A DNA stretch of 64,000 nucleotides. It comes from Schmidtea polychroa (taxonomy: Eukaryota). Position numbers and translations under genes: made by a program. Below the pieces are notes generated by a model. That model was not told the DNA's origin and made no database searches. It worked only from the letters and a program-made list of their open reading frames with translations. Below are positions 34,094 through 58,802 of the stretch, piece after piece. How positions within the stretch are numbered: position 1 is the first letter of the stretch; every line of letters begins with the position of its first letter. The stretch covers positions 2,542,001 to 2,606,000 of the forward strand of contig CM097887.1 of assembly GCA_044892525.1 (NCBI GenBank), given 5' to 3'.

Positions 34094-35040
34094 TAGACTG
34101 TTTTAAATGGGTAGGTGAAAGTAAACAATAACAATCAGGAAACTCAAGTAAATCCAAACGATAAGGGACAGGAAAAGGAGGGACCGCGATACCTTCTACA
34201 GTAGCTCACGAACCCAGAGGCTCGTCGGTTGCAGTTCTTATGGTAGAGCTCACTTGTTTGCTGACAGTCACCCTATTAAATCGCAGTACCAACGTTGCTA
34301 GCGACGAGCGTTTAGTGACCGATTAAAATAATTATGCGCGGTTACTCAGGGTGGTGAATATAGCAAAAGTGTCAAATAGACGATTGTCCTACAGCAAGAT
34401 GTTTCCCCACAGGCAACCGCTCCAGGTCCAACAAGAAATATTTTGAGAACTGTTGAATGAGGTGTAGCAATAATTGAGAATGTAATTTTTATTAACTTGA
34501 TATAAAAATAATCATATTCAAGACAAAAAATCCCATCAAGACAAAAGTGTACAAGATCTTGTTAAGTATTTGATTTTTAAAACAAGGTAGGTCACTAACG
34601 CACAATTATAAATTAAGAAATAACTTGAAAATTATCATCATTAATATTTAATGAATATTCTTTCAAAATAAAAATACCCACATCTTATATATTATTATTT
34701 GTATTTAATAAAATTACAAGATTGATGAACTTTTTTGTATTTGCTTTCTTTAAAATGTTAACTAGAATTCATCATTTCGAGATTTAATAATCATATAATT
34801 TGGAATGTTATACACATTATAGGATAAATTAAATATATTATTTAAGCCATATGAGCGAAGCGCTTATAGGCTTCAATTTTATCACCGGTCGTCCCAAGTT
34901 CAATTTTCGAATTTGGTCAATTTTTTTCGACATTTTTTTGAACGGAATCCGATTCAGCGTATTGATTTTAGTATATATTTAAATTTTCAGAGCATTCTGA
35001 ATTGTAGTTGTCGAGAAAATGATTAATTAATTATTAATTT

Positions 35041-36119
35041 TGCTAAGATCAAAAAACGGGGATTACAGATCTCAACACAATGACTCCAATAATTGAATAA
35101 ATAGATAGATAAATAAATATAAATATGTTATATTTAATGTGGTTGCGCGTATAAGTTTAGATAACTGAATCAAGAACAAACACTTTTCTCTTTTTTTAAA
35201 ACTGTATTTGATAATTTACAAAATAATTTACAATTATTGTATAAAGAAATAAGATAACGGATTTATTAATCCCTGCTGTTTACCTCAGCCTGCAAGAGAT
35301 CGATGGCTCCTGTGTAGCACAACGATCGCAATGTAAGTAAAAAAGTTGGGCAAGCAAAAGGGAATGATTTTGGGGCTCCCAGGGAACACTAAAGTAAGAA
35401 GATCAGTACTTTGTGTTCACTTTTCACAGGATAATAATTTATCCCTCAATACAATAATTTTACCTGGCTTAACAGCGATACTGGTGTGAAACTATTCTTC
35501 TTTGAACTCTTTTCAAAACTCTCTGTTTTTCTTCTCTCTCTCTCTGTTTTACAATTTCGCTTGTTGTCAATTTATACTGAATTTGCACGGTTGAAATCAA
35601 TTCGTAATTTGAGTTGGAATTTCTTCGTGTGAGATTTGGTTTATCGAAACTCGTATTCAATTATTCAAATTTGATTTAAACAATCGAGACTTGTGTTAAA
35701 TTCCTTGTGTTAATTACAATTCTCTCAGTGATTTTTAATCACGTCTTTTTGCAATAACAATTAAATAATTTTCAAGATGTTTCTTTCCAAATGTTCTCTT
35801 TCTCCAATTTATTTGTCCCACTAAGTTATTCTCCAAATAATTTGTCTTACAAATATCCGTCGTCAATTTTATCGTCCCTGGTTCTCGTTTTGAACCAGTA
35901 TTTATTTTAATTATTTATTATATTAATAGCAATTTTATAATTACTATATATAGTAGCCGTATAATCAAATATTACTATATACTACTTATTTCTATTAATA
36001 GTAATTAATTAAACCTATCTTTTATTTTCAGTAATTCTTTATTATTTTTATTTATACTATTTCTAATTTTAGTAATTTTTAATTATTTTATCATCAAGGC
36101 TCCAGGCCTATCCCTAACA
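35041..36119 (-). repeat. 3' LTR (1079 bp)
   Basis: tgctaagatc...tccctaaca; direct repeat of 54196-54975 with extra ~250-bp and ~80-bp segments. Confidence 0.92.
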
Positions 36120-36364: not shown

Positions 36365-37724
36365 TTAGATATCCAGATCATCGGGATCTGGGTCTGGAAC
36401 TTTGTAAAGGTGCAACTCCTTCGTGCTGTAGCTATTTGCAACGACGTATTGCTGCAGCAACTTCTTTTTCCTCTTCTGTAAGACTTCTGGCTCAAAACTC
36501 ATTGCCAGAGGCTTACCATCCAGAGCACTCGTTAATATGACTGTAGACACTACATAAGGGATTCCGTCTACGTCATAAACATCATAATTTTGATTATTAT
36601 TGACTGCCATTCTCGTGACTGGTTGGCAGTCATACTCTTTGGCTCTGGGTTTCCATTTGCTATCCGGAATTTTGTACCACATTGGTTCGAAACCGTCCAC
36701 ATCAACCGAAACTGGTTTCTTGATGATATTCTCCTTGGAAATCTTTAACATTTTCTGCCTAACCACAGGTTCAGATTTAACCTTTATTGCTTCCTGCATC
36801 TCCTTAACCGGAGGTTGAAAAGCAACTTCCACAATGTCATCATCTGGTTCACTGAATATCTTTTTAGGTTTATTATTCTTATCTTCCATACTGCTGGGTG
36901 TCTCTTTTGTCGTTCCTTCGACGATCTAACAACTTTCTTCAACTTTAGCTTCGATTTGTCTCTTTTTATGGGTAATATTTTCTTTAACATCTTTTTCACC
37001 TTGCCTCCTTCTGGATTTTCTTTTCTGACCGCATTTCCGAATTATCCTTTGGCTGATAGGCAGCTCCCGATGATTGTTTGGGTGATTTTGCTATCTCCGT
37101 TTCACTAACGCATGTTTCATATTCATCTTCTTTTCCAATAGATATAGCTGGAGGCGGTAGTAGATCCACAGGTGATTTCCTTTTAGGCTGGGGTTGCTCT
37201 GATGTAGATGGTTGCTCGGGTAATCTCTTCTGCGTCATTTCCTGTTCAACTATCGCTGCTGTAGTTGCGGAAATGAATTCTTCCTGGGGTATAGTGATAT
37301 GGTCTAACCCTTCGTTTCTGATATGCAAATAAACCGCACGTATCGCCAGTGCCTCATTGGTGACCACTAAATTCCTCGGTTCTCCGGGAACCGTACGCAG
37401 GAAAGACTTTGTCAGGAATCCCAATCTGTAATGACCATGAATCTTTGGGACTCCTCTGGTTTCCAATAGTTTATTTGCAGAAAGGTCACGAATACCCAAT
37501 ATTCGCTGCACTGGTAGATTGGCTACCGAGATTAGATCTTTAAGTAAAATACCAACAAGTATTTTCTTATCACAAATCTTTCTTATCAGATGATAACAAT
37601 CATCTTCGCCGAGGTTACCTCTAATATCGGGTTCCTTTAACTTGTATTGATGCGTTTGGTAGTGTTTTACAGGGTCTCTAGGAGTCATTACCGCACTCAA
37701 TAAATTATTTCCCCTCATATCCAT
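36365..37724 (-). pseudogene. Accessory ORF B of the LTR element (probably one ~450-aa ORF broken by a frameshift and a stop); function unknown
   Basis: ORF 36996-37724; the shifted frame GEKDVKENITHKKRQIEAKVEESC*IVEGTTKETPSS continues in frame into ORF 36365-36889. Confidence 0.55.
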
Positions 37725-37733
37725 AATTGCGAT

Positions 37734-38432
37734 TTAGATAATTGTCTCCTTCAGTTCGATTCGGGATTTGGCAAAACCTGCCGATATGAAAATTGTAGCC
37801 TCGACCTCCTCGGCTTTGGCTAAATTTTTCCTCACAAATGATTTACACTGCTGTATATCAGCTTCATTTGCATTGTAAATCCAAGTTGGCTCGTTTTTGC
37901 TAACTATAGGGTATGGCTTCCTGAAGTCTAAGATTTCTACTGTGATTATGGTGTCCACCGCCGCTGCCTGGATCATAATATTCCGTTCTCGTCCATAAGC
38001 GTGGTATATCTCCAGAGTACACTGTTTTTCTAATTCAACCGGTAACTCTAATCCCGCCATAAACACAGTGAACGGCCTATTGATCGCATGGATCCAAATG
38101 TTTTCCAATTTCGGGCATGAACCATACTCTCTACATATTTCCGCCAATTTTAATCTTCCTTGGTTGTTTATAACCGTTATCATCATTTGCCTTCGAGGCC
38201 CTCCTGGGAACTTGAAATCGTTTGGAATATCCACTCTCCTGGGATAATACCAATAGTTTGAGGTGAGGTGATTCATTTTTGCTGCGACCGTGGTTCCGAT
38301 GAACCGATATACGTACTCTTCTTTATATGTGCTGTATACCTCAGTTTCAACTCGAGTCTGGGAATTGTACGTTGCCAATGAGTGTCGTCGATTTGCTTTG
38401 ACTGGTGGCTTTGGTTCTCTGTTGTAATTCAT
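37734..38432 (-). CDS. Accessory ORF A of the LTR element (232 aa, intact); function unknown
   Basis: ATG-to-stop ORF, same strand as pol, stop only 9 bp before the ATG of ORF B. Confidence 0.7.
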   Translation of the reverse strand: MNYNREPKPPVKANRRHSLATYNSQTRVETEVYSTYKEEYVYRFIGTTVAAKMNHLTSNYWYYPRRVDIPNDFKFPGGPRRQMMITVINNQGRLKLAEICREYGSCPKLENIWIHAINRPFTVFMAGLELPVELEKQCTLEIYHAYGRERNIMIQAAAVDTIITVEILDFRKPYPIVSKNEPTWIYNANEADIQQCKSFVRKNLAKAEEVEATIFISAGFAKSRIELKETII

Positions 38433-39656
38433 TTCTAAAAATAAATTAATTAACAGCTTTTATCACTTTCGTGATAGACCCTCGCAGGGTAACCAAAGTC
38501 GACATACGCTGATGTCTGATTTTACCGATGCTCATTTGAGCCCACATTAGTTTACATACTAATATAAATAAAATATTAAATAAATAATTATATATATTTA
38601 CACTTCCTAGTATATGGTGAGACTTTCCCCCTATACCTCGGTTTCGTAAATATTTTCCCAATAACGAATATCCCGCATATTTAATCTAAACATCCATAGG
38701 GTAGCTAATATCAAAATTAAAATCATGCAAATTACTCCCCCTATCATAATTAAGAATAACCAAGTTGGCGTTTAATCTCCCGTTGTCCCCTTTAACCCTT
38801 TGACGCTCATAAGCGTTGCCGGCATTTTTATCGCTTGAAATATTAATCAATCGACAGATTTTAGTCCATTAGTGAGTATTATTTTCAAAAAATAATTTAT
38901 TCTTTATTTTTTAGACACTACCTGGGGTGGTACATAAATACACCACTAAGCGATAATATGCAAAATATCCAATCAGTCAATTATATGATAAAGTGAATAA
39001 CACTGACGTTGAGCATTCAGACAGAGGTGAACATCACATGAACTGCATTTAATGTTGCTGCGGCAATCATGTCTTCGGGTGCTGCAGTATGTGCATCGCT
39101 TTCTGTCTTCTGTGAATACTGGTAAATGTTGTGGTGTAGGACAAGCAGCATTACTCGGTCGAATTTTCTTTGAAGGAGGATTGGCGGATGTCGCTCTCTG
39201 ACGACTACTGTAACGACCAGTGAGAGATAGCGCCACAGATCTGCGAAAGTCAAGAGCCTTCATTAGGTTGCCCTCATTTAGTTTCTTGAAAATGACATAG
39301 GAATTACACACACCAATATCCAGTAGGTCAAAGAAAATGCGTAAGTAGAACTTCACTTTTGACCTTTAAGTAAAAAAATCAAAACAAACAATGTATGTAG
39401 AGTTATAATGTGCACAGAGGCTGTAAATTTTTGCTTACCTTCGGTCGATTCCATATGCCTCTTTTCGTTGATCTGCAATGTCAACACCTCCCATAATTGA
39501 ATTATACGTCGAAACCATTTTTGGAACAGTTTTAGGCATTTTACCAGCCGTACCTCTTCGTCTTCTCATAACGGTCGTGGTTTCAAAAGGAGTCTCATAA
39601 TTGGATAGAATAGTGACAGGACGTTTGTTCATCCACTTTATTGATGAGATACTGCC

Positions 39657-42227
39657 TAGGGTGGAGCTTATTTTTGAACTTTCAAAATATTACCTTCTTA
39701 CCCTCCCATTCTGTTCCTATATATGAAAGAAAAATTCAGGCAAAATATGAACACAATTGAACAATATTTAGGGGTAGCTCAAGGACAGAGAAGTTTCTGA
39801 TACTCTTAAGCAGCGGCCGCCCATTTATTTACGGTACTTTACTATAGTAACTGAGAACTAAGTAAATTGAGACTTTCTCAGACTCTGATAATCATACAAC
39901 ATTTCAATCCTATTTTTACAATATACAATTAACACAAATTCTTCATAGTCCAGGCATGATCAGACTTGTTTAGTATGTTTACTGTGTGGACTGGCTATTG
40001 CAGGAGTTTGACAAATGTGTTTATAAATTTAAATTGTAAACAGTTGATAACACTACTATTAAAGTGAGCATTAAATTGCCCAGAGAGAAAAAGGAAGAAG
40101 GGGGTCGATGACTGGTGCAGATGAAAAACTTGCTGCTAAGGAGAAAAGATCATTTGAACGAGATGAGCAAATGCTTGCGAGGCGACAGCGAATGGAGCAA
40201 GTGAAGCAGTTAGCAGCTTCTACCGCTGAACTGATATCGTCATCTTCTGAAACCAGCTTAGATGGTGGAAACATGAAAAGTGGAGAAAATCTGAGTGATG
40301 ATGCTGCAGGAGGCAGCACATTTCGGACGCCAAAAAGAAAGAGGGGGCGAAAAGCTGTTATTACTCCAGAACTTGCAGTAGCTTTAGATAGAACTAAAGT
40401 GTCAGATCGCAAGGCTGTTTTCGTTATTGCAGAAACTGCTAAAAGCCTGGGACAGAACATCGATGAACTTGCTCTAAACAGAGACTCGATTCGACGACTT
40501 AGGGTAGAACATCGAGTTCAGAGAGCTGCCAACATAAAAGCAAAGTTCCAGGATAATGTACCACTTGTAGTTCATTGGGACGGCAAACTGATTCCTGATC
40601 TGATTGGAAAGGAGAAGGTTGATCGACTGCCGGTTTTGGTTTCTGGAAAAGGAGTATCTCAGCTACTTACAGTTGCTAAGCTTCCATCTGGAACAGGCGA
40701 AGCTCAGGCTGCTGCTGTATATGAAGCCATCAAAGACTGGGGCATAGCCAAGAGTATCCGAGCTATGTGTTTTGACACTACTAGCTCAAACACTGGTCGG
40801 ATTGCTGGTGCTTGTGTACTGTTAGAGCAGAAGCTTCAGAAGGAGTTGTTATCACTGGCTTGTAGGCACCACATTATGGAACTGATAATTGGGGCAGTTT
40901 TCCAGGTCTGCATGGGAGCCTCATCCTCCCCAGAAGTTGCACTCTTCAAACGCTTTCAAGAGTTCTGGAGATTTATAGATACGGCTAAGTATGAAGCAGG
41001 CACTACAGCTGATGACGTAGCAAGTTTACTGGAGGATATAAAGCAAGACACCGTCGATTATGCCAACAAGTATCTTGAACAGAGTCAGCCGAGAGATGAC
41101 TATAAAGAATTCTTGGAACTTGTAATTGTCTTCCTCGGTGCTGCTCCTCCCAGAGGTGTACGGTTCATGGCACCTGGTGCAATGCACCATGCTCGTTGGA
41201 TGTCCAAGGTGATATACAGCCTAAAAATTTGGATGTTCAAGGCGCAGTTCAAGCTGACTACTGCAGAAGAGCGAGGGTTGCGTGATGTTTGTGTATTTGC
41301 AGTACGAGTGTACCTGAAAGCTTGGATATCTGCACCTCAAGCAGCAGGTGCTCCATTCAGTGACTTGCTGCTGCTGAAGTCGCTGCTCGAGTACTCATCA
41401 ATACATGCAGCCATTTCAAAGGCAACATCTCGCAAGTTTGCAAATCATTTGTGGTACTTATCTGAGAAACTGGTAAGCTTGGCTTTTTTCGACAGTCGGG
41501 TCAGTTCGTCAACCAAACGACTGATGGTGAGTGCCATGCAAAATGATGAAAACCAGGATTCTGATCATTGCAAACGTATCACAGTTGCTCTTGGTTCATT
41601 CAAAGAGAAAAACTTGGAAGATTTTGTCACAGCTAAATCAATGATTCTGCTTCAACAGCTTGAACTGCCAGATGGATTTCTTGCAGTTGACCCAGACTTG
41701 TGGGGAGACAGAGATGATTACAAACAAGCTGCAGAAACAGTTACATCTCTAAAAGTTGTAAATGACCATGCTGAGCGTGGAGTGGCCCTCATTCAGGAAT
41801 ACAGTGGATTAATCACCCGTGATGAAACACAACTTCAATTCTTGCTGCAAGTTGTCCAGGACCATCGCAAAATGTATCCCGACAGCAGGAAAAAGACTCT
41901 GTCCGCCATCTCTGGGTTTACATAATAACAGTTAATTTCAAGTTTGCTGGACATTTACAGATTGTTTGTGTCAGAAGCTAAAGAAACATTTCACTATTAA
42001 TGTCTATGTGTGTAACACTGAAGTTTGCAAAAAAATAAAATAGAATCAGAATTTGTTGAATTTACAAAAATTTTATCATATTTCAGGCACTTGAGCTACC
42101 TCTAAACATAAAAATTTATTGCTTAAACTTTTTATACAGTGTTTCTATACCATAAGGAACAGATTAGGGGGGTAAGACTTTCAAAAATTATTTTTTTATT
42201 TTTTTTTATTTTTTAAGCTCCACCCTA
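39657..42227 (+). mobile_element. hAT-superfamily (hATm-like) transposon nested in the piggyBac
   Basis: TIR TAGGGTGGAGCTTA / TAAGCTCCACCCTA plus long imperfect subterminal inverted repeats; perfect 8-bp TSD ATACTGCC at 39649-39656 and 42228-42235. Confidence 0.93.
40108..41925 (+). CDS. hATm-like DDE transposase (605-aa uninterrupted ORF; 5' exons may be missing)
   Basis: VVHWDGK, FDTTSSNTG, ACRHH (CxxH), HHARWM, VVNDHAERGV; possible splice acceptor cccag just upstream. Confidence 0.85.
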   Translation: MTGADEKLAAKEKRSFERDEQMLARRQRMEQVKQLAASTAELISSSSETSLDGGNMKSGENLSDDAAGGSTFRTPKRKRGRKAVITPELAVALDRTKVSDRKAVFVIAETAKSLGQNIDELALNRDSIRRLRVEHRVQRAANIKAKFQDNVPLVVHWDGKLIPDLIGKEKVDRLPVLVSGKGVSQLLTVAKLPSGTGEAQAAAVYEAIKDWGIAKSIRAMCFDTTSSNTGRIAGACVLLEQKLQKELLSLACRHHIMELIIGAVFQVCMGASSSPEVALFKRFQEFWRFIDTAKYEAGTTADDVASLLEDIKQDTVDYANKYLEQSQPRDDYKEFLELVIVFLGAAPPRGVRFMAPGAMHHARWMSKVIYSLKIWMFKAQFKLTTAEERGLRDVCVFAVRVYLKAWISAPQAAGAPFSDLLLLKSLLEYSSIHAAISKATSRKFANHLWYLSEKLVSLAFFDSRVSSSTKRLMVSAMQNDENQDSDHCKRITVALGSFKEKNLEDFVTAKSMILLQQLELPDGFLAVDPDLWGDRDDYKQAAETVTSLKVVNDHAERGVALIQEYSGLITRDETQLQFLLQVVQDHRKMYPDSRKKTLSAISGFT

Positions 42228-44043
42228 ATACTGCCATTAGTGCTAACGTAAGAGTAAATATCACCCTCTTTCATACGCTTGTTAGCACGTACATCATCTG
42301 GCAAGTGTTTTCGTGATGTTCTGATAGTACCAATAGCTTGAACACCGTTTTCACGTAAATAGAAAAACAGCTCTACCGAGGAGAAGAAATTATCCATTGC
42401 CAGGATACAGTTTGTGTTGTGAAGACTCTTTGCCAAATGCATTATCACACTTCCACCTAGACCAAATTGGCGACCTTCATTATAAACTTTGCCTTGATAC
42501 ATGTCAAGTTCATGAACATATCCAGAACGTGATGATGCTCGGACCCACATTTTGAATCCCCAGGGTATGGGTTTTCCTTTGACGTACTGTTTCATTGCAC
42601 TTTTCCCAGTGAACTTAATCATGTGTTCATCAATTGACATTTCATTTTCCATTTCCATTGCAGCTTGAAACGCTTTGTTGAAATGGTTTATTAGTGGACG
42701 TACTTTGTACGCTCTGTCGTATTCCGGATTGTCTTTATGTGGCTGAAGAGCATTATCACTAAAGTGCAAATTCTTTAGGATAAATTCAAATCTTTTCACT
42801 GTCATCACATCGGCAATTGCATCTACATGGAGATCTCTGTCAGTTGACCAATAGTCACGGAGATTTGGTAATCTGTTATAGCCCATAATTATGCATATAC
42901 CCAGAAATGCTTTTATCTCTTCACTTGTTACATCGAATATAATTCCCTGTTGTTGAGCATACAATTTAGTTTGTTCAATAATGAGTGTTACAAGATCTTC
43001 AAAATTTGTTGTGATTTCAAATGAAGAGTAGGCAGTTGCAGGTTCAATATCCACTTTCACTTTTCCGAAATCTACTAGTTTTGTAGGTGTAGGGAATTCC
43101 AACAATCTCCGTTTTTTCTTTTGCCATTTTATATTTAAAGCCGTTGAATGCAACACATCCGAATCACGTTCTGAAATGGCAACAGAAACAAATATACGAA
43201 TTCGATTGAAATATATTAGGAAATCGAAGTAATGTACCTGACTCATCAGATAAGTCTTTAGATTCCTCATCAACATCTATGTCTAAAAACATAAAAATAA
43301 AACTTTGGTCACCATAAATGCTGATTTTAATTTGTAGCTAGCTTATATACCTTCTATTATTGTTTCGTCGATACCCATTTCAATGTCATTTTCAATCAGG
43401 GTAACATCTTCCTCATCAAGGTTTTCCATTTCGTCCTCAGAATTATCCGCCCATAAAAGTGAAATTGCTTTTTGAGCACAGGCTCTTCTTGAGTGAACAA
43501 TTCTTTTTTCTTTTGACATATCCTATAATAAAAATCATAAAAAATAAATAGCAAGTGTTAAAATATGTATTTTCATTTTAATTATATTTCTGTGCTATCA
43601 CTAAGTACTATCAATTTAGTAATTTAATAATGAACTATATAATACGCTAAATTTATGTTTACCGTTCTGTGGTATATATATATATATATATATACCACCA
43701 AGTTATTTCAGTTCTCTGAAGTACAAAAAAATAGTATTTAAGTTATTTTAATAGTCATTATGTTAGCTAAATCATTGTGAAATAATATAATATGAAAAAC
43801 GTTTTCAAAAACAAAAGATTACCTAAAATAATCTGAGTAGAAGATAATGTCTCAAAATTCTGAAAATTTCAAATATTTAACGAGATCGTATTAACTAAAA
43901 CAATGTTTTTATAGACACCAAAGATTCCAATGATAATATTTAGGCATATGAGAGTATTTTTATCAAAGGGCGAAACCAAATTATGTTTATTTATTGGTGA
44001 ACTATTTCGTTGAAGACGTGGTACATATATATACCACAGAACG

Positions 44044-44836
44044 TCAACTACAATTATTAATTAATTTATTTATGCGGGGCTGTTTTACACTCGCTACCTT
44101 TCTAATACTAAACCAATCCAAAGCGTTTATTCCTTTACAACCAGGAATATTTACTAATCTAGCCTTTCCTTCTTTGCTAGTTAGTTCTCCCTTTGTGGGA
44201 GGTATTAAATTTACTATTTCTTGATATATTGTATACCAACCGGTTCTTTCAGTAAACTCTAAATAAGAAATGTTCGCCTTTGTCACGATATCTGGTTTGA
44301 TTGCCCATCTTCTACTTAGATAAGCATGGTTGAGCACTAATCTCTCGACTCGCTGGTCATTTTCTAATATGACGATAAGCGCGATTTTATTATTCGTCCT
44401 CCAATCGTGAGTGGAAAGAGTATCATTTCTGTTCCACCGTGGATGAGTAAATCTTACTGTCGGCCCAAGATATGAAATCTCTACTTTTTTGGTAAATTTT
44501 GCAGTCTTCAAAATCCATGATGCTTTATCTACACAATCTCCTCCGTCTGCAAAAACGTTTGGGTCTGCAAAGAATGTCTTGATTTCTAGAAGATAACTTG
44601 TATTCGGCATAAGTCCCTCTATCCCATGTATTCAAGTGAAATGATATCCCTTTTTCAGCAGCTACCAAATATAGATCATATCTGTGCCATTGTATATTCG
44701 TTAAATGAAATCTGAATGCTCTATCTGTTCGTTGATATTCGATATCTGGATGTTGACTATCTTTTGGTGTAAATACCTCGAATGCTTGTCCAATCATCAT
44801 AACACAACTAATCACCGCTAGAAATGTAACTGTTTT
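44044..44836 (-). pseudogene. Post-integrase secreted/surface domain fused in frame to IN (signal peptide, FN3-like motif); truncated by the piggyBac
   Basis: After RYPLRSR: KTVTFLAVISCVMMIGQA-FEVF; frameshift near 44635 leads to IEGLMPNTSYLLEIKTF and ORF 44044-44610. Confidence 0.6.
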
Positions 44837-47800
44837 CGGGATTTGCCGAGATCGTAAAGGGTATCGTTCTGGTTGTCCCTTTAGGATACTTTTATATGAT
44901 TCTAACGTTTTCTTTTTCGATTTCTTATCTATTTCGAATTCATCAATTTCTGATTTTGGTTTCTCTTTTCCTGGCGGGGCTATCTTTTTACATCTGTTTG
45001 CATGAACCATTATCGGTTCTGCTTTTCTGTTTGCCACTAACTGCAAGACCAAATTGGTTTCTGTGACTTTCAAAATTTGATACGGCCCTTTGTAATTTCT
45101 CATTAATTTTGGAGATAAACCCTTTTTGTTGTAATGTCCCTCTACCATGACATAATCTCCAACCAAAAATCCATGATCCTTTGCCTTGCGATCATGATAT
45201 TCCTTCGTTGTTTCTTGGTTATAACGAATGTTCAAACCTGCTTTCTCCCAGGCTTCTTGCATTCTCTCTCTCATCTCGAATAAGTAATTTCCCTCATCAC
45301 AATTCTGTGAAGCTTTCGGATAAAATATAAGATCGACTGGCATCTTGCTATGCCTCAAATACATCAGATAGAAAGGTGTTTCTCCCGTTACTGAATGAAC
45401 AGCATTTCTATACGCAAACAAACATGATGGTATGTGTACATCCCAGTCTGTCTGACCTGAGTTTACGTATGATGATAACATGTTTACCAAGGTTCCATTG
45501 AACCTTTCTACCAATCCATCCGTCTGTGGGTGGTATGGTGAGGTATTTAACTTTAAAATACCAAAGTAATCATTTATACCTTTTAACAAATTACTCATGA
45601 AATCCTTTCCTCTGTCGGTAAGCAATTTTGTCGGAACACCATATCTAAATACAATATGTTCTACAAATATTCTGGAAATTGTGTCTGCCTTATGATTCGG
45701 AATTGGGAATGCTTCGGGCCACTTCGTTAAGTAGTCGCAAAATACTATGATAAATTTATTTCCCATCTTCGATTCTTTAAACGGCCCTAGTACGTCCATA
45801 GCAGTCATCTCCATTGGCGAGGACGGTACTGGCATTGGTTTCAATGGAACATGTGGTTTCCTGCCTGTGTTCCTTCTGGTTATACATATCTTACATGATT
45901 GACACCACTTTTTAACATCATCTTTCATATCTGGCCAGAAGTATTTCATTTTTAATCTCGATAGTGTATGTCTAGCTGAGAGATGTCCTCCCAGTGCTCC
46001 ATCGTGATATTGTAATAGTAGTGATTCTCTGTATTTCTTTGGCACTAATATTACATTATCTCTTGATTCCACATATTTGATTAGACCTTCTTCCAATATG
46101 AATTTATCTTTATGTTTCTCCCAATACTTCTGAAATTCATTTGGTATGGCCTTTGCTTCTATAGCTTGTCTGATCATATTGATCTCGTCATCATTTTTCT
46201 GCGCCTCTACTAAATCGCTCAAAGTGTTAGCCTCTCTTGTTAGCATGAAGGTAGTTCCTTCTAATCTTCCTTCCTTTATATCTTCTAACTCAGGCTCTTG
46301 CTCCATTCGTGATAATGCGTCTGCATTACCATTAACTTTACGATATACAATTTCGATATTATATGACTGTAATCTCAATGCCCATCTTACTAACTTTGAT
46401 GCTTTGTCTCTATGTTTTAACAGCCATTGCAATGGTTTATGATCTGTATAGAAAATTACCTTTCTGCCCCATAGGTAATGACTAAATTTTTCCACTGCAA
46501 ACACTAACGCTATAATGCTTCCAATTCTATTACAGCATAACTTTTTTCGTGTGGCTTCAATCCACGACTTGCATATGCAACTGCGTACTCATCGCTAATT
46601 TCGTCTTTCTGTCCCAAAACTGCACCTATACCTCTTGTGCATGCATCGGTCATCACCATGAATTGTCTTTTAAAATCTGGAAATCGTAAAATTGGTGGTT
46701 TGCATAGTGCATCTTTTAACTTATCGAATGCCTGTTGTTGGTCTTCTCCCCATAAAAATTTTATACCTTTCTTTTCTAAGGTAGTTAAAGGAAAAGCAAT
46801 TGCTGAGAAATTTCGTATAAATTTTCTGTAATATCCCGTCAACCCTAAAAATCCTTTGATTTCTTTCACATTCACTGGTTGTGGGAAATTCTTTACTTTA
46901 TCCGTGTTAGCCGGATCTGGTCTTACGCAATCGTGTGATATTACATGCCCCACGTAAATCACTTCCGATTCTGCCCATTTGCATTTGCTTGGCTTTACTT
47001 TCAGGTTAGCCATAATCAATCTTTTGAAAATGTCCTCAAGGTGTTCCAAATGTTTATCTAAATCTTCCGAGATGATAATATCATCTATATATACCATTGC
47101 ATGATGTGCATCCATCAACATGATATTCATTGCCCTCTGGAAAGTTGGAGGGGCTCCTTTTAATCCAAACGGCATTACTAAGTATTCAAAATGATCACTA
47201 CTTGTAGAAAATCCTGTCATAGGAATTGAGTCTTCGCTCATCTTTATTTGATAAAAACCTTTCTGTGCATCCATCACAGTAAACAACTTTGAATTTTTCA
47301 TTTTATCATAAATGTAATCTAGCAAAGGTAGCGGGTGATTATCACTAACTGTTTGTTCATTTAATTTCCTATAGTCATTGCATAATCTAACTGAGCCGTC
47401 TCTTTTAGCTACAACCACCAAAGGTGAGGAATATGGAGATTTACTGGGTCTGATTATATTATATTTTTGCATTAATTTAATTTGTTTATCAACGGACCCC
47501 TGTATACTTTGAGGTATTCTGTATGGGCGTATCTTTATCGGTTTATTTTCTGTTAATTTAATTTCATGCTCTAGAATATTAACTTGCCCTAAGTCATATT
47601 CGTGTTTTGCGAAAACTTGGTCATATTTACGTAACAATTGATTAACTCTGATGTTTTCCTTTCTAGATAAGGCTTTACTATCGCAGCTCGGTGCGTCATA
47701 ATATTCAATTTCAGGATCTCGTTCATCCTCTTCTACTGATAATATCGATTCAAACTCTTTCTGCATGTTAGATAGTTGTATCACTTTACCCACTCTAGTC

Positions 47801-48597
47801 TCTGGGTATAATCTCAATGATTTGCTCGCTAGATTCGTTAATCTAATCGGGATCCTTCCTCCCCGTACTGTTGCCAAGTTTTTCACCATAGGCGTTTTAT
47901 ACCTATTTACGAACTGCTCACTCGGTTCGAAAATAACATCTCCTTCCACCTCTTGGTGTGTTGCTACAAAACAAACTGTTTCGGTCCTCGGTGGTATTGT
48001 CACCGTTCTATCCAAAAACACTACATCCACACTGTAGGTTTTCCGTTTTCTACCCGTCATTTTCACTAATTCGCCTGTTGCACAATCGAATACAATATCT
48101 TTTAACTTTTTCAATATATCCATTCCCACGATACATTCTGCCAAACATTGTCTAGTGACCTTGATATCGTGTCTAAATTTTTGATCACACAACCTTAATT
48201 CACAATCTAATGTTCCGATAACATTGATAGGTTGTCCATTTGCTCCCGATGCCACGGTTAATGTCGGCACTATTGCTTGTAATTCTTTTTCATTTAATAA
48301 ATTTGCTTCGATCAATGTCAAATCAGATCCTGAATCAATAATGACATGTACCGTATGTCTGTTAACTTTTAATTTGATCGTAGGTTTATGAGTCTTTTTA
48401 CCCATATTGACCATTAATATTGCTGAGATTCCTCGAATATTGTCTCTGAACCTTTGTTGATCATCACTATCTTTGTCATTTTCTGATTTTATTTCATCCT
48501 TATACTCTTCCTTTAGCCGTTCCAACGTGCTAAATGGATATTTCGGTACCATCTCCAATACTGATGTACCCAAGGGTGGCATTGTCTCGAACTTCAT
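44837..48597 (-). pseudogene. pol: pol: aspartic protease, RT, RNase H, integrase (Ty3/gypsy order)
   Basis: IIDSGSDLTLI; RLCNDYRKLN, MPFGLKGAPPTFQR, YIDD; TDACTRGIGAVL, YTDHKPL; HHCC (GGHLS..CKIC), MDVLGP, TDRG, VERFN; a 2-bp TA insertion frameshift at ~46510. Confidence 0.95.
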
Positions 48598-48725
48598 TTG
48601 ATACGTTGGTTATGAGGTAGATGGTAATATATCTGTATTCGTTCTGAACTCGAACCTCTTTAGCATTTCCTCTTCAACTCGTTCTGGTATTATCTTTTTT
48701 CTACCCTCGTATGGTGATAAATAAT

Positions 48726-51482
48726 TCACAGGCCACTCCTGCCGTTTAGTTGTAAAGTACTATTTTCAAAATTTTGAGATTTCGGTTTTTTGTTGTCTGG
48801 TTTTATTGAGGTGTTGTCTGAGGTCTCATAGCCCTCTAGGTTACCTCCCTCGTCAGAATTGTCATCGTCTCGATGACTAGGTTCGTACATTATTAACTCA
48901 TGCTTCTTAATAGTTTGTCTCTTCATTCTCTTAATCTCTTTATTATGATGATGAAATACTGCAAAATCTGCACAGACTGGACACATCCCTAGTAGCAACT
49001 TCCAAGACCATCCCCCGATCTTGAAGATACTATAGGTGGAAAATAATTGCGATATGATTATTTTCAATATCATCACTATTGCATATATACCTGATCATCC
49101 TGCTACAAAAATGCCAAAGCTTGTAAATCTCCCCCAGATTTTCCGTATTACATTTGATGCAGCTTGTTTGTAATGTTCTGGTCCAAATAATAAGTTATAG
49201 TCCGGTTTTCCATCATATGATTGATAAATTCTTGTTATTATCTCTGACATTCCCCGATCTCTGATTTGGGGAAATACAATTGCTCTCCGAGCTTCTTCAA
49301 TATCTTCCGGAGTATATACTCCGCCTTTTGACATCTCGTTTAATGGTTGAAACTCCACTTTAGTTTCTAACTTTGTAGCCTGAAGCACTTCAACTGGTTT
49401 TGAAGGCGGCTTTCTGTCTGGCAACGAAATCCAAATATTGTTGATTTTGTATAATGGTGACATTGCTGGATTGCAAATTGCTGTTAATGGTGAGGTATCC
49501 TCCTTTAATAGCTGGTGTGATACTGGCATCAGGAATCTCAATTTTCCTTTATATTTCACTAATAGCTCCAATGTACATCGATCATATTTGGTAATTTCCA
49601 CCTCTATTGCTTTACATTGATAGCTAGAAATTGCTTCGCCCAAAATTCTACCAAATGTTCCTTCCTCTGTCGACATTGGCATTATTAAATCAGGATTTGC
49701 TATAGATATTGCTAATCTATTTCGTATTATTTCCCGATTTAAACGACAGTCGTTCAGGATCACTTCCTGATACACATCTAATAATTGTTTCTGCAAATCA
49801 TGATACAAGAAATCAATCTTATTATTGATATACTTGGCTATTTTAATATCTGATAAATGTAATGATTCTGCTGCTGGAACATATTTGTATGCTAAGTATA
49901 TTCCCTTGTAGTTGGTTTCAAATATTGGTACACCACATTTTGTTGTCTGTTTCTTTCTGACTAAACGGATTGCATCTGTTGGGTTCTTGGAGACTAATAC
50001 TACTGCTGTGCTTTTCTCCGGTACTACTTCCTTTTTCGTTTTGTGAGCTATCTTGTCTCCCCAACCACTTTGTTGTGAATCCTGAGACGTAAAGCTTTTC
50101 CCATCTAGCCTTGAAAATACTACCTTTTTCAGGTATCCTAAATCACAAAAATCTCTCATTGATTGGTACGTTAGTACTGCCAAACTGGTTTTACAATAAC
50201 CATATTTCACGTTGCATTCTGGATTAGACATCATTTTTCCCGTGGATACTTCGAAAGTTCCTTCGTACTCGATCAGCTCTACTGTGTAGTCCTCAACTGT
50301 TACCACATAACTTACTACATTGGAACCTCTTACTTTCTTTCTGCCATGACAAGAACCATCATCTGCTGTCGGTCCTCCCCGGGTAATAGTTATACCCAAC
50401 TTTTTCCCTTCTTCCGCGGTAATTGTTAGCTCATGATCTATTTTAACTGTTTTTGACCGAAAAGCATTTAGACAATCCTCTGGTGGGATGATTAACGGTA
50501 TAGGAATGAGTTTAGCTCCTAAAAATGCTTAATAACTATTCGATCCACAGTAATATTCAAACGTCGCTCTCTGGATTCGACATTCCCTCACTCTAGTTCT
50601 GTAAAACTCTGTTTGCTGATAAACATGATATTCTACGTCTTCCCTTTTTGCAACTTTATCTGGATATGCTTCCTTGCATTCCACTGTGTCTACTAATGAG
50701 TAGATTCGCGATAGTATTGGTTCATTACAATCATATGACGTTAGGGAACTTGTCTGTCGCAATATTCCCATCATTACCAACAACATCTTCATCCAACTAG
50801 TAAATCCACCTGCTCCCCGTGGACTACTTTTCATTTTCCCTTTCGTCAAGCCTTCATCTATGAATTGTCCTGCTACTTCGAACATCTCTTGTTCTGTGGT
50901 GCCTCCTGGAATCTTTTCCATAGCTTTCTTGACTTTTTCTGCAATTTTGACAACATTAACACTTTTATCTTTCTTGATTTGCCAATCGGGCTTAATCAAT
51001 CGTAAGATTTGATTCAGTCTTTTCCATGTTTCCGTTTTATCACTAGCGTCTCCAACGCTTTTATCAATTTGGCTAGCTATCCCTGCTAGAGCCTGCTTCG
51101 TTACATTTTGTATTGTAACTGGTTTTAGAAGTTCTCTTGGAGGCGGGTTCATTTGACTTTTCCTCGGTCTACCCCTTCTCTCCCTCTTCTTTTTATTCTC
51201 GACTAGCTTCGGGCTCACCCTTTCTCTTGGTGGCTCGACTTGTCGCGAAGTGCTAGCTCCGATGTTTGCTTCATTTCGGTTTAATTGCACTTCCTTATCT
51301 TCCTCTGTTGGAAATATTTCCATCAACTCGTCTTCAGTATTATCAAGTTCCTTTAGATATTTATCTATCTCTTCATCTAAATCTACTGTAGTTACGGGTT
51401 CTTGATGAATATCCCCATCTACTTGTTTTTGCTCGGGATGTACAGTTTCATCTCCCATTTCGGCATTATCTGGAAATCTCAA
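48726..51482 (-). pseudogene. Acidic/AT-hook linker + chuvirus/gB-like (class III) envelope glycoprotein, between gag and pol; two in-frame stops
   Basis: Internal signal peptide WMKMLLVMMGILRQTSS-LTSYDC; YYCG; DGSCHG; YINNKIDFLYHDL; DCRLNREIIRNRLAI; GEAISSYQC; GGVYTPEDI; C-terminal TM KIWGRFTSFGIFVAG*SGIYAIVMILKII..GWSWKLL; the three ORFs share one frame. Confidence 0.8.
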
Positions 51483-51508: not shown

Positions 51509-54056
51509 CTACCATAATATTAATACAACTGTTTCCTCATTGGGAAAACATCCAACATCTACTAGAAATTCGTCGTCATCCACCTGACAACCATGTATCA
51601 TTTTTAGGAATGATTCTTTTAATATTTCTGATATTCTTTTTATCAGTTTCTTTACTCTATGATAACACGAGAATTGTTGTATCAGGTGTCCTCTCCTGGG
51701 TAACCTGATACCTAACATTACTGGACCTTGTCTACCTTCCAAATGTCTACCTTGCAAATGTCCATTTTTAATCAGCAGCATTTTTTCTTGTGCCTGGAAT
51801 TGTGATGTCTCTTTTACTAAAGGCACCACCAATGGCATTATCTCTCTAAGAGTATCTACTGGGATTCGCAGCTCCAGTATCCAGTCCATTATCATCTTAA
51901 TGGCTTCCCCATCTCTTGGGTTTTTCATCAGCTCGATTCCCAATCTATGTGGTACGGCTGATATTTGATTTAATTGATCAATTTCTATCTCGCTTTTTGT
52001 AAGGACATTATCCAAGTCCACTACTGTAACAGTTTCCTTGTGAAACTTTGCTTTTATAATCATATGTTTCCCTGGTAGTATACCACAATCTAACAGGGTT
52101 TCTCCCTCTAATAATTTTTCTCCCAATAAATATAGTTTGCATCTCAATTGAGGTTTTAACTCCGAAACTCTCTTTGCCAATGCTTCTACCTTTTCACTTG
52201 GGTTAATCGTATATCTACGAAAACAACCCTTTGGGAGAGATACAAAAATTGTAGAATCCTCCAGATTCTTTCTTTGTTTCCAATTTAGGCCAATATTTCT
52301 CAGAATTTCTCTCAATTCTGGATGATATTCCTCATTTCTGTCTAACTCTGATATGATATCCATTACTTTGTCAACCTCATTCTCATTAACGGGGTTTAAA
52401 CGAATATTTTCTAATTTCTGTCTCATTTCTCTTTGCCATACGCTCTTGCGTAATAATACTTTTCTACAGTCATCGATGGGATTCCTTTCCTCTTTCGATG
52501 CTTCTCTAACCTTTATTGGTTCACTACCACACTCACCTCGCATGGATGATGTGGCTATAAGGACTTCCGGCTCACTGACCGAAGCCCATCTTTTTTCCAA
52601 AACTTCTGTTGGAACAATTACATTAGCTACTGGATCCATGTCCAAAATCTTACGATTTTTAACTGGTGAAACCGGTAAACCTTCTATTTCTCTGTTGGCT
52701 TTTGGCTCCATTGCCATAGCCACTAGATTTTTCCTGGGTGAAACCTGTAAACCCTCACAGACCATAGTCTTTTCCTCTTTGTCCTCCTGCGGACTTTCTT
52801 GAAGCATCAACACTTCAAGTTCTACATAATTATTTTTATTTCGCCTCTTTTTGGCTGACGTCATATAAACAGCTTCATTTTCATCATACCCATCGGTTTC
52901 ATTTGTTGTCAGCCTTGCTAACCTGTTTCTCTCTTCTTGAATTTCTAATTCAAGCTGCTGCAAATACGTTAATTTATGATCTGAATTCACTGCAAACGTT
53001 GTCTGCTTCGATCGATTATTACCATTGTTACTACTACCATTGTTAACTGATAACTGATAACTGTATAGATAATTAGATAACTGATTTTGTGGACAAGAAC
53101 GCATAATATGACCAAATTTTCCACACTTATGACATTTAATTTTACCCCCCGAATTTACTTCATCCCTTTTAATATTATTATTAAAATTATTATTTCTACT
53201 CTGAAAGTTATTATTATTATTATTAATACCACGAAAATTCCTATCGGGGCTTCTATTTCTATTATTATTATTATTTGAATTATTCCCCCCAAAACTAGCT
53301 TTACAAACTGACGCTACATGTCCCACACTTGGTACATAATTTGTCCCCTGGAGAATTATTCCTACTTTTACAATCTTTTGACATGTGTCCCTTTTTATGA
53401 CAATTAAAACACTCAATGTCTGACTTATTGCTACTAATTGCAAAATTATTTGACTTCTCAATGCTACTTTCAATTAAACACGCTTTGCGAGTTAATTCCT
53501 CTAAATTATCTCCTATGTGTAAACTGAGTGCATTTCTCATTGCTCACGATAACCCTGACCAAAACTGATCTTTTACTAATGCTCTAGTTGCATCATTCCA
53601 GGCTGCCCTATTGCCAAATGCTCTCTCTGCCAACATCACTATTTGATATGAAAATTCCCCAACATGCTCACCCGAATTTTGTCGCTTGTTATAAAACTGT
53701 TGTCTCAACACTCTAGTTGCATCCCATGGTAATATTCTGTTTTGTAACGCTAATCGTAATACATTCCATTCAACTGGATGCTCGGCTATTATAACATCGT
53801 TATATATTTCCCGCGCCATCCCTTTTAAATATAAAGGTAATCTCAAAATCATTACCGGTTCCGGAAATCCTAATGCTCTGGCTAACTGAAAATATTCGGA
53901 CATAAATTCTGGAAACTCCCCTGGGTTTCCACTAAATGGTTTAATCGGAATTGTTGGATATCTCATAAAATCTACCGCTGGTGGTTGAGCTACCGGCATA
54001 TTATTATTTTGTAAATTATTCTCATTTAGATTTTGTAAATTATTTATATCTGCCAT
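51509..54056 (-). pseudogene. gag: gag with three CCHC knuckles, Asn-rich spacer and an embedded ubiquitin-like domain
   Basis: Capsid-like PIKPFSG..F..F, LPLYLKGMA, RQNSGEHV; CFNCHKKGHMSKDC, CTKC/GHVASVC (frameshifted), CHKCGKFGHIMRSC; Ubl at 52044-52256. Confidence 0.88.
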
Positions 54057-54174
54057 TATTTGTTGGTTTCTATTACCTGGTCTAAAATTTATTACTCTCC
54101 TATTTCTTAACTCAATGATTCAAAAAGATGTTTGTCTTTTATAAATAAAAATTCTTATTCCCCCCGTAAATTAT

Positions 54175-54195: not shown

Positions 54196-54975
54196 TGTTA
54201 AGATCAAAAAACCGGGATTACAGATCTCAACACAATGACTCCAATAATTGAATAAAATAAATAGATAAATAAAAATAAATATAAATATGTTATATTTAAT
54301 GTGGTTGCGCGCATAAGTTTAGATTACTGAATCAAGAACAAACTCTTTTCTCTTTTTATAAAACTGTATTTGATAATTTACAAAATAATTTACAATTATT
54401 GTACAAAGAAATAAGATAACGGATTTATTAATCCCTGCTGTTTACCTCAGCCTGCAAGAGATCGATGGCTCCTGTGTAGCACAGCGATCGCAATGTAACT
54501 AAAAGAGTTGGGCAAGCAAGAGGGAATGATTTTGGGGCTCCCAGGGAACACTAAAGTACGAGATCAATACTTTGTGTGAATTATTCAAATTTAATTTAAA
54601 CAATCGAGGCTTGTGTTAAATTCCTCGTGTTAATTACTAATCTCTCAGTGATTTCTAATCACGTTTCTTTGCACTAACTATTAGATAATTTTCGAGATGT
54701 TTCTTTCCAAAATTTCTCTTCCTCCCCTGGTTCTCGTTTTGAACCAGTATTTATATTATATTTTAATTATTTATTGTATCAATAGTAATTTTATAATTAC
54801 TATATATAGTATTAGTAACACTAGTTGTTACTAATTATAGATTATTTATTATTTATAGTATTTAAATATGTTTAAACTTTATTTTAAGTAACTCTTTATT
54901 GTTTTTATTTACAGCAATTCTTATTTTAGTAATTTTATTTATTTTATCCTCAAGGCTCCAGGCCTGTCCCTAACA
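54196..54975 (-). repeat. 5' LTR (780 bp)
   Basis: tgttaagatc...tccctaaca; TG..CA; followed on the minus strand by the PBS. Confidence 0.92.
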
Positions 54976-55600: not shown

Positions 55601-57430
55601 GTATACGGACGATACCATGGACTCTGTTGATTCTGAAGAAGAAGGAATGATACTGAAAGAGGGGCTAGAAAAAGTTTGGGCAATGCCGGAATGTGGCCTA
55701 GAAAATGGCTGCCAACTCGGAAAGAATTATGACTACAATCCCAGTTGAAGAACGGGCTAAAACACTGAATATTGAAAAGGAAGCGACAATGACCGTCAAG
55801 ACCCTAGGTTTGAAATGGTACTCTGAAGACAATGAATTTAGTTTTCAAGTAGATCTGCCGAATGAAGAATGTTTATCGAAAAGAAAGGTATTGAGCATAG
55901 TGGCAAGAATCTTTGATCCATTTGGACTGTTAGGCCCATTCATAATCATAGGGAAAAAGATTATTCAGAAATTATGGTTGTTAGGGCTTGATTGGGACGA
56001 AAAGCTACCCCGAAAGTTTAATAAAGAAATACACAAGTGGGTAGAGGATACAAATAATCTCGGAGATTTGCAAATTTCGAGATGTTTAAGGACTTAAATG
56101 AAAAATGAATGGCAATTAAATGTATTTTCCGATGCGTCAAGCACAGCATATGGGTCAGCTATATATCTACAGGAAGATACTAAGGTAGGACCTAAAAGTG
56201 TGTTGATTGCATCAAGGGCAAAGGTAGCTCCAGTGCAAATTATAAGTATACCAAGGTTAGAATTAATGGCAGCGTGTACTGGGGTTAAATTAGCAAGACG
56301 GGTTTCAGAAGTGCTGGGCAAACCGATGAGTGAGATACGGTTTTGGTCCGATAACAAAGACGTAATACATCGGGTTCGAAATTATTCGAGACTATTCAAG
56401 CCATTCGTAGCCAATCGAATTAGGTTCATTCAAGAAATGACAAAACCAGGGCATTGGGCTTTATGTTCCAACGATTGAAAATCCATCAGACTTGATCACA
56501 AGAGGATTATCGGCGTCGGATTTGATAAAAAGCACCATGTGGTGGAAGGGGCCGAAATTTCTACTAGAACTAATGGGAAATTGGCCAGCGACGGAGTTAA
56601 ACCAATCAAGTGCAACGAAGGAGTTCCGACAGGGAATAACAATGATGGCATGTGTAGAGGGGCAAATACGAATAGGAAATACGGACTGTTTCAAAGTAGA
56701 AACCTTTTCCTCGTGGCAGAGATTGGTCAGAGTTCGGACCTGGGTGGAGAGATTTATTTTGAATACGAGAACGACACAGTCTCAAAGAAGCACAGAGCAA
56801 CTGACAACTGATGAACTTAAAAGAACGGAACTCAATGTGATTAAAGGAGAGCAGGCGAAGTTTTTCTCTGAAGACCTGGCACGACTTATCAAGAATGAAA
56901 GGATAGATATCAGAAGCAGTTTGTTAAAGTTGACATCAGTTTTAGATGAGATGAAGGTGTTACGAAGTAATAGCCACATAATGCATGCAAAGAATTTACT
57001 ATGTGAGACAAAATATCCAATATTAACCATAAAAGATTGCCATGAAAGTTTGAGCCATTATGCAGAAACCCAACACGTCTTAAGTGTGTTGAACGAAAAA
57101 TATTGGATTTTGAAAGCCAAAGTAATGATCAAACAATGTGAGACAGAATGCGGAATGTGTAGGGAAAGAAGAGCTAAAGGAATGAGTCAAATAATGGCAC
57201 CGTTACCGGCGTTCAGGGTTTCAGAACCATTTAGAGCCTTTGTTCACTCGGCAGTAGATTTTGCAGGACCGTTTGAAACTAAAGTAGGCAGAGGAAAGGT
57301 GAGAAATAAAAGGTACATTTGCCTATTCGTATGTTTAAAATCACGGGCGGTGCATATTGAAATGGCATATGGTTTGGACACGGATTCATTCATTCGAGCT
57401 TTTATGAGTTTTGCAGCGAGGCGAGGAATG
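55600..57430 (+). pseudogene. BEL/Pao LTR retrotransposon pol fragment (RT end, RNase H, integrase)
   Basis: Y.DD..DS, KTLGLKW, KRKVLSIVARIFDPFG, FSDAS..AYG, KVAP..SIPRLEL, FVANR, NPSDL.TRG, WWKGP, VDFAGPF, RAVHIE, F.ARRG.P. Confidence 0.9.
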
Positions 57431-58802
57431 CCAAAATCGCCAAAGCCAAACTACGCGTAATGAGAATTAAATGTGAAGGAAAGAAGATATTAAGATGTAT
57501 CTCCAAATTATTTTTAATTATAAAAGAAGAAGGAGAAGCTAATGGGGATTTGAGATTGACACTAAGATGTCAAGGAGGGGGGGCGGGGGAGGATGGTGAA
57601 TTATGAGTTTATGTGTTGCGTCTATGGGTTTTTTGTTTTGTCATTGGATTAATTTGTGTGCTTACACAGACGCGGACAATTGTCGAGTTGAGATCGAATT
57701 TTTATTTATGATCGGTTTTTGATATTTTGGCTGTAACAATTTTGGTTTTTTATGTGAAGTTGTTTAAATTTTGTAGATTTTCTGTAAATTTGAAAATAAA
57801 AAGGTTTTAAAATTCGTTTGGCGTGCTGATTTCGAAATGGAAAAATTAGTTTGGAATATCTACTGTTGGAATGGATGAATGGACAATTAAACAGACACCA
57901 TTTATTACTCAAGTTCAATCTTTAGCTGATTTAAGAAAAGTTTATTCGTTTCGGCCATTATCTCAATATTCATTATGTAAAGCATGTGAAGATCTTAATG
58001 TTGCAGTTTTACGATTTATTTCAGCTGCTGAAACTATTGCTAAATATTATTCTCAGAATTCATCTGAAATCGCTAATTCTTGCAATTGAAGTCGTTCTCT
58101 GCTATCAAGTTTGAAATTGACCTTCCAAACAGATAAAATCATCATAGTGGTTCTTTCTAACATTGACCGGGTAAAAGCTATTAGGCACCTGTGTTGAGTA
58201 TTTTTGAGAAACTCATAATTCACCAGGTAGGGTATATAAGGTAGATCCTAACTGGTTCTTTTAAGCACAATGCTACATGAATATCAAAGGCATTTTTATG
58301 TCTTATCCCATTAAGACAATTGGGGCCCAAGTTTACACATATTTGAACATTACAGGATCTACTCTGTTGCGAATTCATTAATTTTTGTAAATTAAAATCT
58401 GCGGTGTAATGGAAATAATCCCAGTCTTCCAATAATAATAAGTAAATAGGTTAGTAGTGTGTATGATGGGAATCCTACCCCGCCCACCCCCTAATTCGCT
58501 CGTAAAAACAAGTTTTTTTTCACTCGCTCACCCTTCGGGAGAGGTTTGGTCAACGTAAGATTCCCATTATACACACTACTACAAATACATCAATATTTAA
58601 ATAATTTTAAAAATATTATTTTATTAATAATATCGAGTACCCGAATTTTACTGGTACCCAAGAATAAAAAAATTAAAATATACAGATTTGATAATTCGAT
58701 GATTCTAATAATTCTAATATTTCTAATATTTTCAATATTTCTAATAAAACTGGAAATCAGTAAATACACTAATTCCCAATATTATAATATAAACCATCTA
58801 AA

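Follow-up and report, generated by a model that had tools for sequence, protein, structure and literature searches.

Giant gypsy elements of planarians (dugesiids), Burro and GYPSM1, are described in the available part of PMC6431247 as encoding one polyprotein with the envelope domain (env) in frame between gag and pol. GAG-ENV-POL errantiviruses with an env of HSV/gB type (HSV, herpes simplex virus) have been reported from Nematoda, Bryozoa and Platyhelminthes, with one env per element in the part of PMC13524379 available. The subject of the present analysis is a Ty3/gypsy element of Schmidtea polychroa, found as a broken copy on the minus strand of a 64,000-nucleotide stretch (assembly GCA_044892525.1, contig CM097887.1, positions 2,542,001 to 2,606,000; hereafter the window), and in particular the module encoded behind its integrase (IN). 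To our knowledge, env-bearing long terminal repeat (LTR) elements and retroviruses have been described with one envelope gene that serves both binding and fusion. We find that the module is real, conserved and more complete than an earlier reading of the window from its letters alone (the sequence-only reading) had noted, and that it ends the polyprotein across a group of Burro-like gypsy families. The in-frame gag-env-pol order is known from planarian Burro; the second glycoprotein is absent from the literature we examined.

The window family shares with the GAG-ENV-POL errantiviruses (PMC13524379, available part) a Ty3/gypsy pol, a class III-type env before pol and many similar copies, and its env, matched by PF24664 with an expectation value (E) of 5.9e-82, is likewise in frame between gag and pol. 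It differs from them in its second glycoprotein, and neither ‘fibronectin’ nor ‘polyprotein’ has a match in the available text of that paper (main text and seven supplementary files). Burro, in the available part of PMC6431247, has, like the window family, an env that matches fusion proteins of mononegaviruses, stretches resembling ubiquitin and Bcl-2 ahead of env (weak in the window family) and downstream accessory open reading frames (ORFs). In the strict sense, however, Burro denotes elements of >30 kb with MATH, ankyrin and BIR cargo, whereas the window family measures about 14.7 kb without a piggyBac-like insertion and has no MATH, ankyrin or BIR match; it is Burro-like in plan. The content described for Burro1 (PMC6431247, same part) is found in a giant sister family with a 4,791-aa frame. 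The Burro domains listed in that part include neither an FN3 domain nor a second signal peptide, nor any membrane anchor at the C-terminus.

The window's IN frame (46588-44525, minus strand, 687 aa between stops) continues past RYPLRSR (44866-44846) into a hydrophobic stretch (44836-44783) and on to FEVF (from 44782) with no stop between, just as the sequence-only reading had it. The segment beyond, IEGLMPNTSYLLEIKTF, begins at 44622 in the next frame (44631-44044). The single frameshift that had been placed before this FN3-like motif is there, and it is specific to the window copy: 14 nt are missing at about 44622 relative to all nine aligned copies, and the point is read through in a single frame in 11 of 11 other copies.

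These 11 copies were translated after a DNA search of the source genome (781 Mb, four large contigs) that listed 42 matches, the best 40 of 273 candidates being scored. The hydrophobic continuation is not a matter of chance, because the IN C-terminal region of eight of the 11 copies runs into it without a stop and three of the 11 are open from RNase H through the final stop. In the remaining three a stop lies just upstream of the hydrophobic stretch (two identical, one elsewhere). An IN ended by a stop before this region, which a consensus of other copies might have revealed, is not the rule, and neither of the other two outcomes that would have spoken against the sequence-only reading, the lack of a predicted signal peptide or of an FN3/Ig-like fold, arose. 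Seven of the translated copies yield an identical 308-residue mature protein, and a protein search of the genome returned 148 matches, 34 of them near-full-length at 91-100% identity and 16 at 60-63%, the latter forming a second subfamily. Ten of the 148 lie in a 3,516-aa open frame, and one of the second subfamily lies in a 3,513-aa frame. In the 3,516-aa frame Pfam finds gag, class III-type fusogen (PF24664), protease (PR), reverse transcriptase (RT), RNase H (RH) and IN; behind IN the frame continues with a signal-like segment, a pair of predicted FN3-type domains, the stalk, a transmembrane helix and a short tail whose last residues before the stop are ETEV. The proposal that the element encodes two distinct surface modules, one a fusogen before pol and the other a signal-bearing protein behind IN, is supported; the second is the end of one gag-env-pol polyprotein, not a separate protein at the canonical env position. 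The element has no separate env at that place: a single polyprotein is followed by a separate ORF2. Contigs from one sequencing run, which we guess to be of RNA and which may be of DNA, cover the stretch.

In the window the element is laid out as follows (basis in brackets).

54197..54975, minus strand: 5′ LTR (TG...CA), then a primer-binding-site-like stretch (LTR alignment)
51512..54119, minus strand: gag with CCHC knuckles, broken in the window copy; in other copies it opens the single polyprotein (Pfam)
48729..50790, minus strand: first signal segment, PF24664 class III fusogen and its transmembrane helix, broken by stops in the window copy (Pfam, hydropathy)
44867..48609, minus strand: PR-RT-RNase H-integrase (Pfam)
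44783..44866, minus strand: RYPLRS linker, found in five of the six groups of families, with the internal signal-like segment 44836-44783 (hydropathy, family comparison)
44497..44782, minus strand: domain 1, of predicted FN3 type, bearing the L-x5-Y motif; in the window copy its frame shifts at about 44622 (structure model, Foldseek, copy alignment)
44197..44496, minus strand: predicted beta-sandwich domain 2, FN3-like, its tyrosine motif degenerate in the window family (structure model)
44045..44196, minus strand: stalk with cysteines, cut by the insertion (translation, alignment to another copy)
38797..44044, no strand assigned: piggyBac-like insertion (PF13843 pieces), foreign to the element (Pfam, alignment)
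38631..38796, minus strand: stalk end with in-frame stop 38774-38772; 25-residue transmembrane helix 38762-38688; 18-residue tail ending ETEV; stop 38633-38631 (translation, hydropathy)
36365..38432, minus strand: ORF2, homolog of ISG20-like DEDDh exonuclease, broken in the window copy (profile matches)
35040..36119, minus strand: 3′ LTR, with a purine tract before it (LTR alignment)

Assignment to Ty3/gypsy (Metaviridae type) follows from the order PR-RT-RH-IN with gag upstream (Pfam) and from two LTRs (54975-54197 and 36119-35040) with TG...CA ends, a primer site and a purine tract. The LTR pair aligns in two blocks of 92% and 72%, and no target-site duplication is evident around the window copy; the primer-binding-site-like stretch after the 5′ LTR is, we presume, tRNA-Trp-like. 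Pfam finds gag knuckles, then PF24664 (Monjiviricetes-type fusion glycoprotein) at 51488-48729, and then PR, RT, RNase H and integrase. The module gene is broken in the window at three places, by the 14 missing nucleotides, a 5.2-kb insertion and a stop before the helix. Another genomic copy aligns as far as 44045 and picks up again at 38796, so that the insertion parts the ectodomain from its helix and tail (38762-38631); position 44044, which had been taken as the module's limit, is the insertion edge, and the module goes on beyond it. The piggyBac-like element sits at a TTAA with one end truncated, and nested inside it is a 616-aa transposase-like frame (40075-41925, plus strand) with no Pfam match.

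The same ending recurs in related families. PF24664 gave 2,580 candidates in the genome, 68 of which were scored. The sequence fetched comprised 10 stretches lying behind fusogen matches, a further 20 behind integrase or ectodomain relatives, and a single giant-family copy. Besides the window family (A/B, counted as one), these represent families C (8 loci), D (2 and one relative), E (1), F (18) and the giant family (1). In all fetched families IN is followed by a hydrophobic segment and an ectodomain, with a helix and short tail wherever the frame is unbroken, and six of the six fusogen-bearing (PF24664) groups examined have the signal-ectodomain-helix-tail ending. The RYPLRS linker is missing from the giant family alone. 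Ectodomains comprise two repeats or domains in A/B and F and three in C, D and E; F is 25-27% identical to the window family, C/D/E 12-14%. By profile comparison, F is joined both to A/B (E = 1.9e-7) and to C/D/E (E = 7e-6), whereas a direct link of A/B to C/D/E was not significant (E = 0.3), the giant-family ectodomain could not be aligned to C/D/E by profile (E = 0.43), and when the window family was compared with C and D by pairwise BLAST, the RYPLRS word alone appeared. The giant family (L064, L065), in the one copy examined, has MATH, PF24664, ankyrin and the signal-ectodomain-helix-tail end in its 4,791-aa frame, followed by TRAF and BIR-RING ORFs, and it recurs many times among the best 150 integrase matches scored. 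A search for fusogen-less gypsy families, intended as a negative control, returned almost only this family.

Beyond the genome, a deep HMMER search with family C, not the window family, as query gave one match among 1.84 billion, the metagenome protein P0002 (E = 8e-10). By profile this stand-alone protein record matches C/D/E (E = 1e-12), and it has the same build. Sequence searches of a protein database (near and longer lengths), viral contigs and metagenome contigs returned no outside relative of the window family. Matches to an insulin-receptor helix (E = 0.099), a glycoside hydrolase (E = 0.05) and Sm proteins were below significance and were set aside.

By its sequence features the module protein is a membrane-anchored type I protein and not a secreted one, because the helix and tail lie beyond the insertion and are continuous in other copies. 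The ‘secreted/surface’ protein of the sequence-only reading would thus be a surface protein and not a secreted one, with a predicted transmembrane helix and a cytoplasmic PDZ-type tail. Signal segments have a hydropathy of 1.6-1.9 and anchors of 2.1-3.2, there are 3-11 sequons, the tails span 21-31 aa by the window rule, and the ectodomain carries cysteines as well as sequons. Along the natural frame, hydropathy places a signal-like segment before the fusogen, the fusogen anchor, a second signal-like segment after IN and the final anchor, an alternation of signals and helices that is topologically consistent. The proposed signal peptide is supported by hydropathy, position, a small-residue cleavage pattern judged by eye and the conserved layout.

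A fibronectin-like or immunoglobulin (Ig)-like fold had also been anticipated, and structure prediction agrees. AlphaFold2 with 18 natural sequences modelled two seven-stranded sandwiches at medium confidence (mean predicted local distance difference test score 68.5), which by prediction gives two domains that match FN3 as a seven-stranded beta-sandwich of about 90-100 residues. Tandem FN3 pairs lead the Foldseek list, with fibronectin (E = 1.9e-6), tenascin, neogenin and DCC, and the top ESM Atlas matches were FN3 for two families that are 13% identical (0.88 and 0.93). Pfam fn3 gave no match over the curated cut-off for the window family, and domain 1 of family F scored 13.3 bits against a cut-off of 25. 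The L-x5-Y motif, the leucine/tyrosine-corner rule for FN3, was present in seven of seven sequences scanned, once in A/B and twice or more in C, D, E and F. We predict that the ectodomain consists of two FN3-type beta-sandwich domains, a designation under which the FN3 topology is not told apart from C2 or other Ig-like folds.

The extreme C-terminus is the most uniform part of the protein. All eight C-termini, ETEV, ETEV, MSQL, ETRL, ETWV, ETFV, STLV and the giant-family end ATLV, fit the class I PDZ-binding rule, S/T-x-V/L/I at a free C-terminus. From composition such an end is expected by chance in 3-4% per sequence, a figure to be read with the shared ancestry that makes the sequences non-independent; the end is kept even where the rest of the tail cannot be aligned. 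Some rabies virus G proteins likewise use ETRL as their PDZ-binding end, and its occurrence in family C is likely a case of convergence.

Selection was measured between the two subfamilies by the Nei-Gojobori method. For the mature protein, nonsynonymous divergence (dN) is about 0.25 and synonymous divergence (dS), which is partly saturated, about 1.2-1.3, with dN/dS of 0.19-0.21 in 20 of 20 between-subfamily pairs. In one pair dN/dS was 0.08 for domain 1, 0.21 for domain 2, 0.55 for the stalk and 0.18 for helix and tail, against 0.019, also in one pair, for the IN region upstream of the module. The module is under purifying selection and evolves about ten times faster than IN.

What the module does is a matter for weighing. 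We tentatively put at close to even chances that this second type I membrane protein is the likely attachment or adhesion partner of the element's fusogen, because its place is fixed, it is linked one-to-one with the fusogen, and constraint is strongest on the membrane-distal domain. The polyprotein would thread the endoplasmic reticulum membrane four times, in the order Gag, signal 1, fusogen, helix 1, Pol, signal 2, FN3 domains, helix 2 and tail, so that the two ectodomains would face the lumen, while Gag, Pol and the PDZ-type tail would stay in the cytosol. Signal peptidase would then free both glycoproteins, IN would be cut away from the signal stub by the protease of the element, and the two glycoproteins would be made in equal numbers. 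The S/T-x-hydrophobic C-terminus could bind a host PDZ scaffold, thereby placing the protein at cell contacts or budding sites, and the FN3 domains may bind a partner on the next cell, letting the fusogen act. Possible, and further from assured, is a wider proposal in which the lineage consists of reverse-transcribing viruses whose envelope holds two glycoproteins, one a class III fusogen and the other a dedicated FN3 attachment protein captured from the host. Signal peptidase would cut both from a polyprotein that also contains Gag and Pol, and a PDZ tail would direct spread towards cell contacts. If true, an LTR element would combine a division of labour like that of herpesviruses or paramyxoviruses with an expression plan like that of flaviviruses, the giant Burro-like family included.

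The build of the module also recalls host receptors, and we consider it unlikely, though the strongest of the alternatives, that a truncated receptor of cytokine-receptor or receptor-phosphatase type was captured as a surface decoy or signalling modulator that protects the carrier cell and has no role in entry. The combination of two to three FN3-type domains with a helix and a short tail is that of class II cytokine receptors; the top VIA rows include IL20R, the IFN-lambda receptor, IFNGR and CD45; and most families retain tyrosines close to the end of the tail. Sister families also carry BIR-RING, TRAF/MATH, ankyrin, a weak Bcl-2 match and an ISG20-like nuclease, which could be anti-apoptotic cargo. 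Poxvirus interferon-binding proteins, which share a tandem FN3-type fold with the module, are among the viral Foldseek matches, but these matches are weak (template modelling score about 0.3, 10-13% identity), and viral FN3 decoy receptors of this kind are mostly secreted, whereas the module has an anchor and a PDZ-type tail. Stem-cell protection has been reported for the Burro1 inhibitor of apoptosis protein (cited in the available part of PMC13465017).

A role in assembly or release, in which the signal stub anchors Pol to the membrane, the PDZ tail picks the budding site or the module counters a host tethering factor, and the ectodomain is mostly a spacer, appears improbable. The tail motif is the most constant feature of the module, ectodomains vary in domain number and cannot be aligned in one family, and the proposed topology would tether Pol at both ends; yet domain 1 is constrained beyond a spacer's need. 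That the module is a functionless passenger, a chance hydrophobic stretch with decayed host DNA behind IN, is hardly credible: the lack of a significant family match and the three breaks in the window copy would fit such a history, but frames are open in many copies, dN/dS is about 0.2, and the layout is kept in deeply diverged families and in P0002.

For the attachment reading, viruses offer two kinds of precedent. Separate attachment and fusion proteins are used by herpesviruses (gD or gH-gL with gB) and paramyxoviruses (H/HN/G with F), which resemble our element in having a second envelope-type glycoprotein beside the fusogen; they differ in that the element's two glycoproteins share one polyprotein with Pol, and no sequence or fold link to them was found. 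The split between attachment and fusion suggested by the sequence-only reading is something that we infer by analogy. Flaviviruses, alphaviruses and bunyaviruses produce several glycoproteins from one frame by alternating internal signals and anchors, and, unlike the element, are RNA viruses without RT or integrase.

A second membrane protein kept under selection in deeply split and very abundant families suggests that these elements need more at the cell surface than a fusogen. Its presence makes it testable whether the gB-type env elements of invertebrates pass between cells, and via which receptor. The most abundant giant family shares the signal-ectodomain-helix-tail layout, and knock-down and proteomics are routine in planarians. 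Our search of the literature pairing retrotransposon or Burro with fibronectin turned up nothing on a module of this kind; it may be annotated in Grohme 2018, Sacco 2022, Lee 2026 or Repbase, and the available parts of PMC10084718 and PMC12440569 have no bearing on it.

ORF2 is homologous to ISG20/ISG20L2-like DEDDh exonucleases (family E against ISG20L2, E = 1e-10; window family against family E, E = 1e-18) and occurs in sister loci at L060:401-1888 and L039:4168-5625. Because the first D-x-E motif, kept in D and E, is lost in A, B and F, the sequence suggests that ORF2 of these three is a pseudo-nuclease. Behind pol, rotifer LTR elements have additional ORFs, some for transmembrane proteins and some for DEDD exonucleases; according to the available part of PMC5408684, in which ‘fibronectin’ has no match, these ORF3s are separate ORFs and the exonucleases are of DEDDy type, in contrast to the one polyprotein and ISG20-like ORF2 of the window family.

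The Bcl-2-like stretch (PF00452, E = 0.012, weak) lies just before the first signal, at residues 987-1077 of the L067 frame. The window family aligns to it with a score of 74 against a maximum of 52 in 200 shuffles, and in the window copy the stretch, at about 50800-50900 (minus strand), is incomplete. Elsewhere in the genome, a tandem trio of family copies with 14,218-base spacing is found at about 100.87-100.90 Mb of G000:C2, and a satellite-like array at about 106.49-107.23 Mb of G000:C3 (L033), made from a piece of the element, repeats part of the ectodomain's second half dozens of times, with one match every 2.87-2.88 kb. The window further contains, as judged by eye, a decayed BEL/Pao-like pol stretch at 55702-57460 (plus strand) and decayed frames at 59316-60283 (plus strand) that we take to look like a polinton or adintovirus capsid, as well as a decayed integrase fragment of a related gypsy family at 62858-63293 (minus strand).
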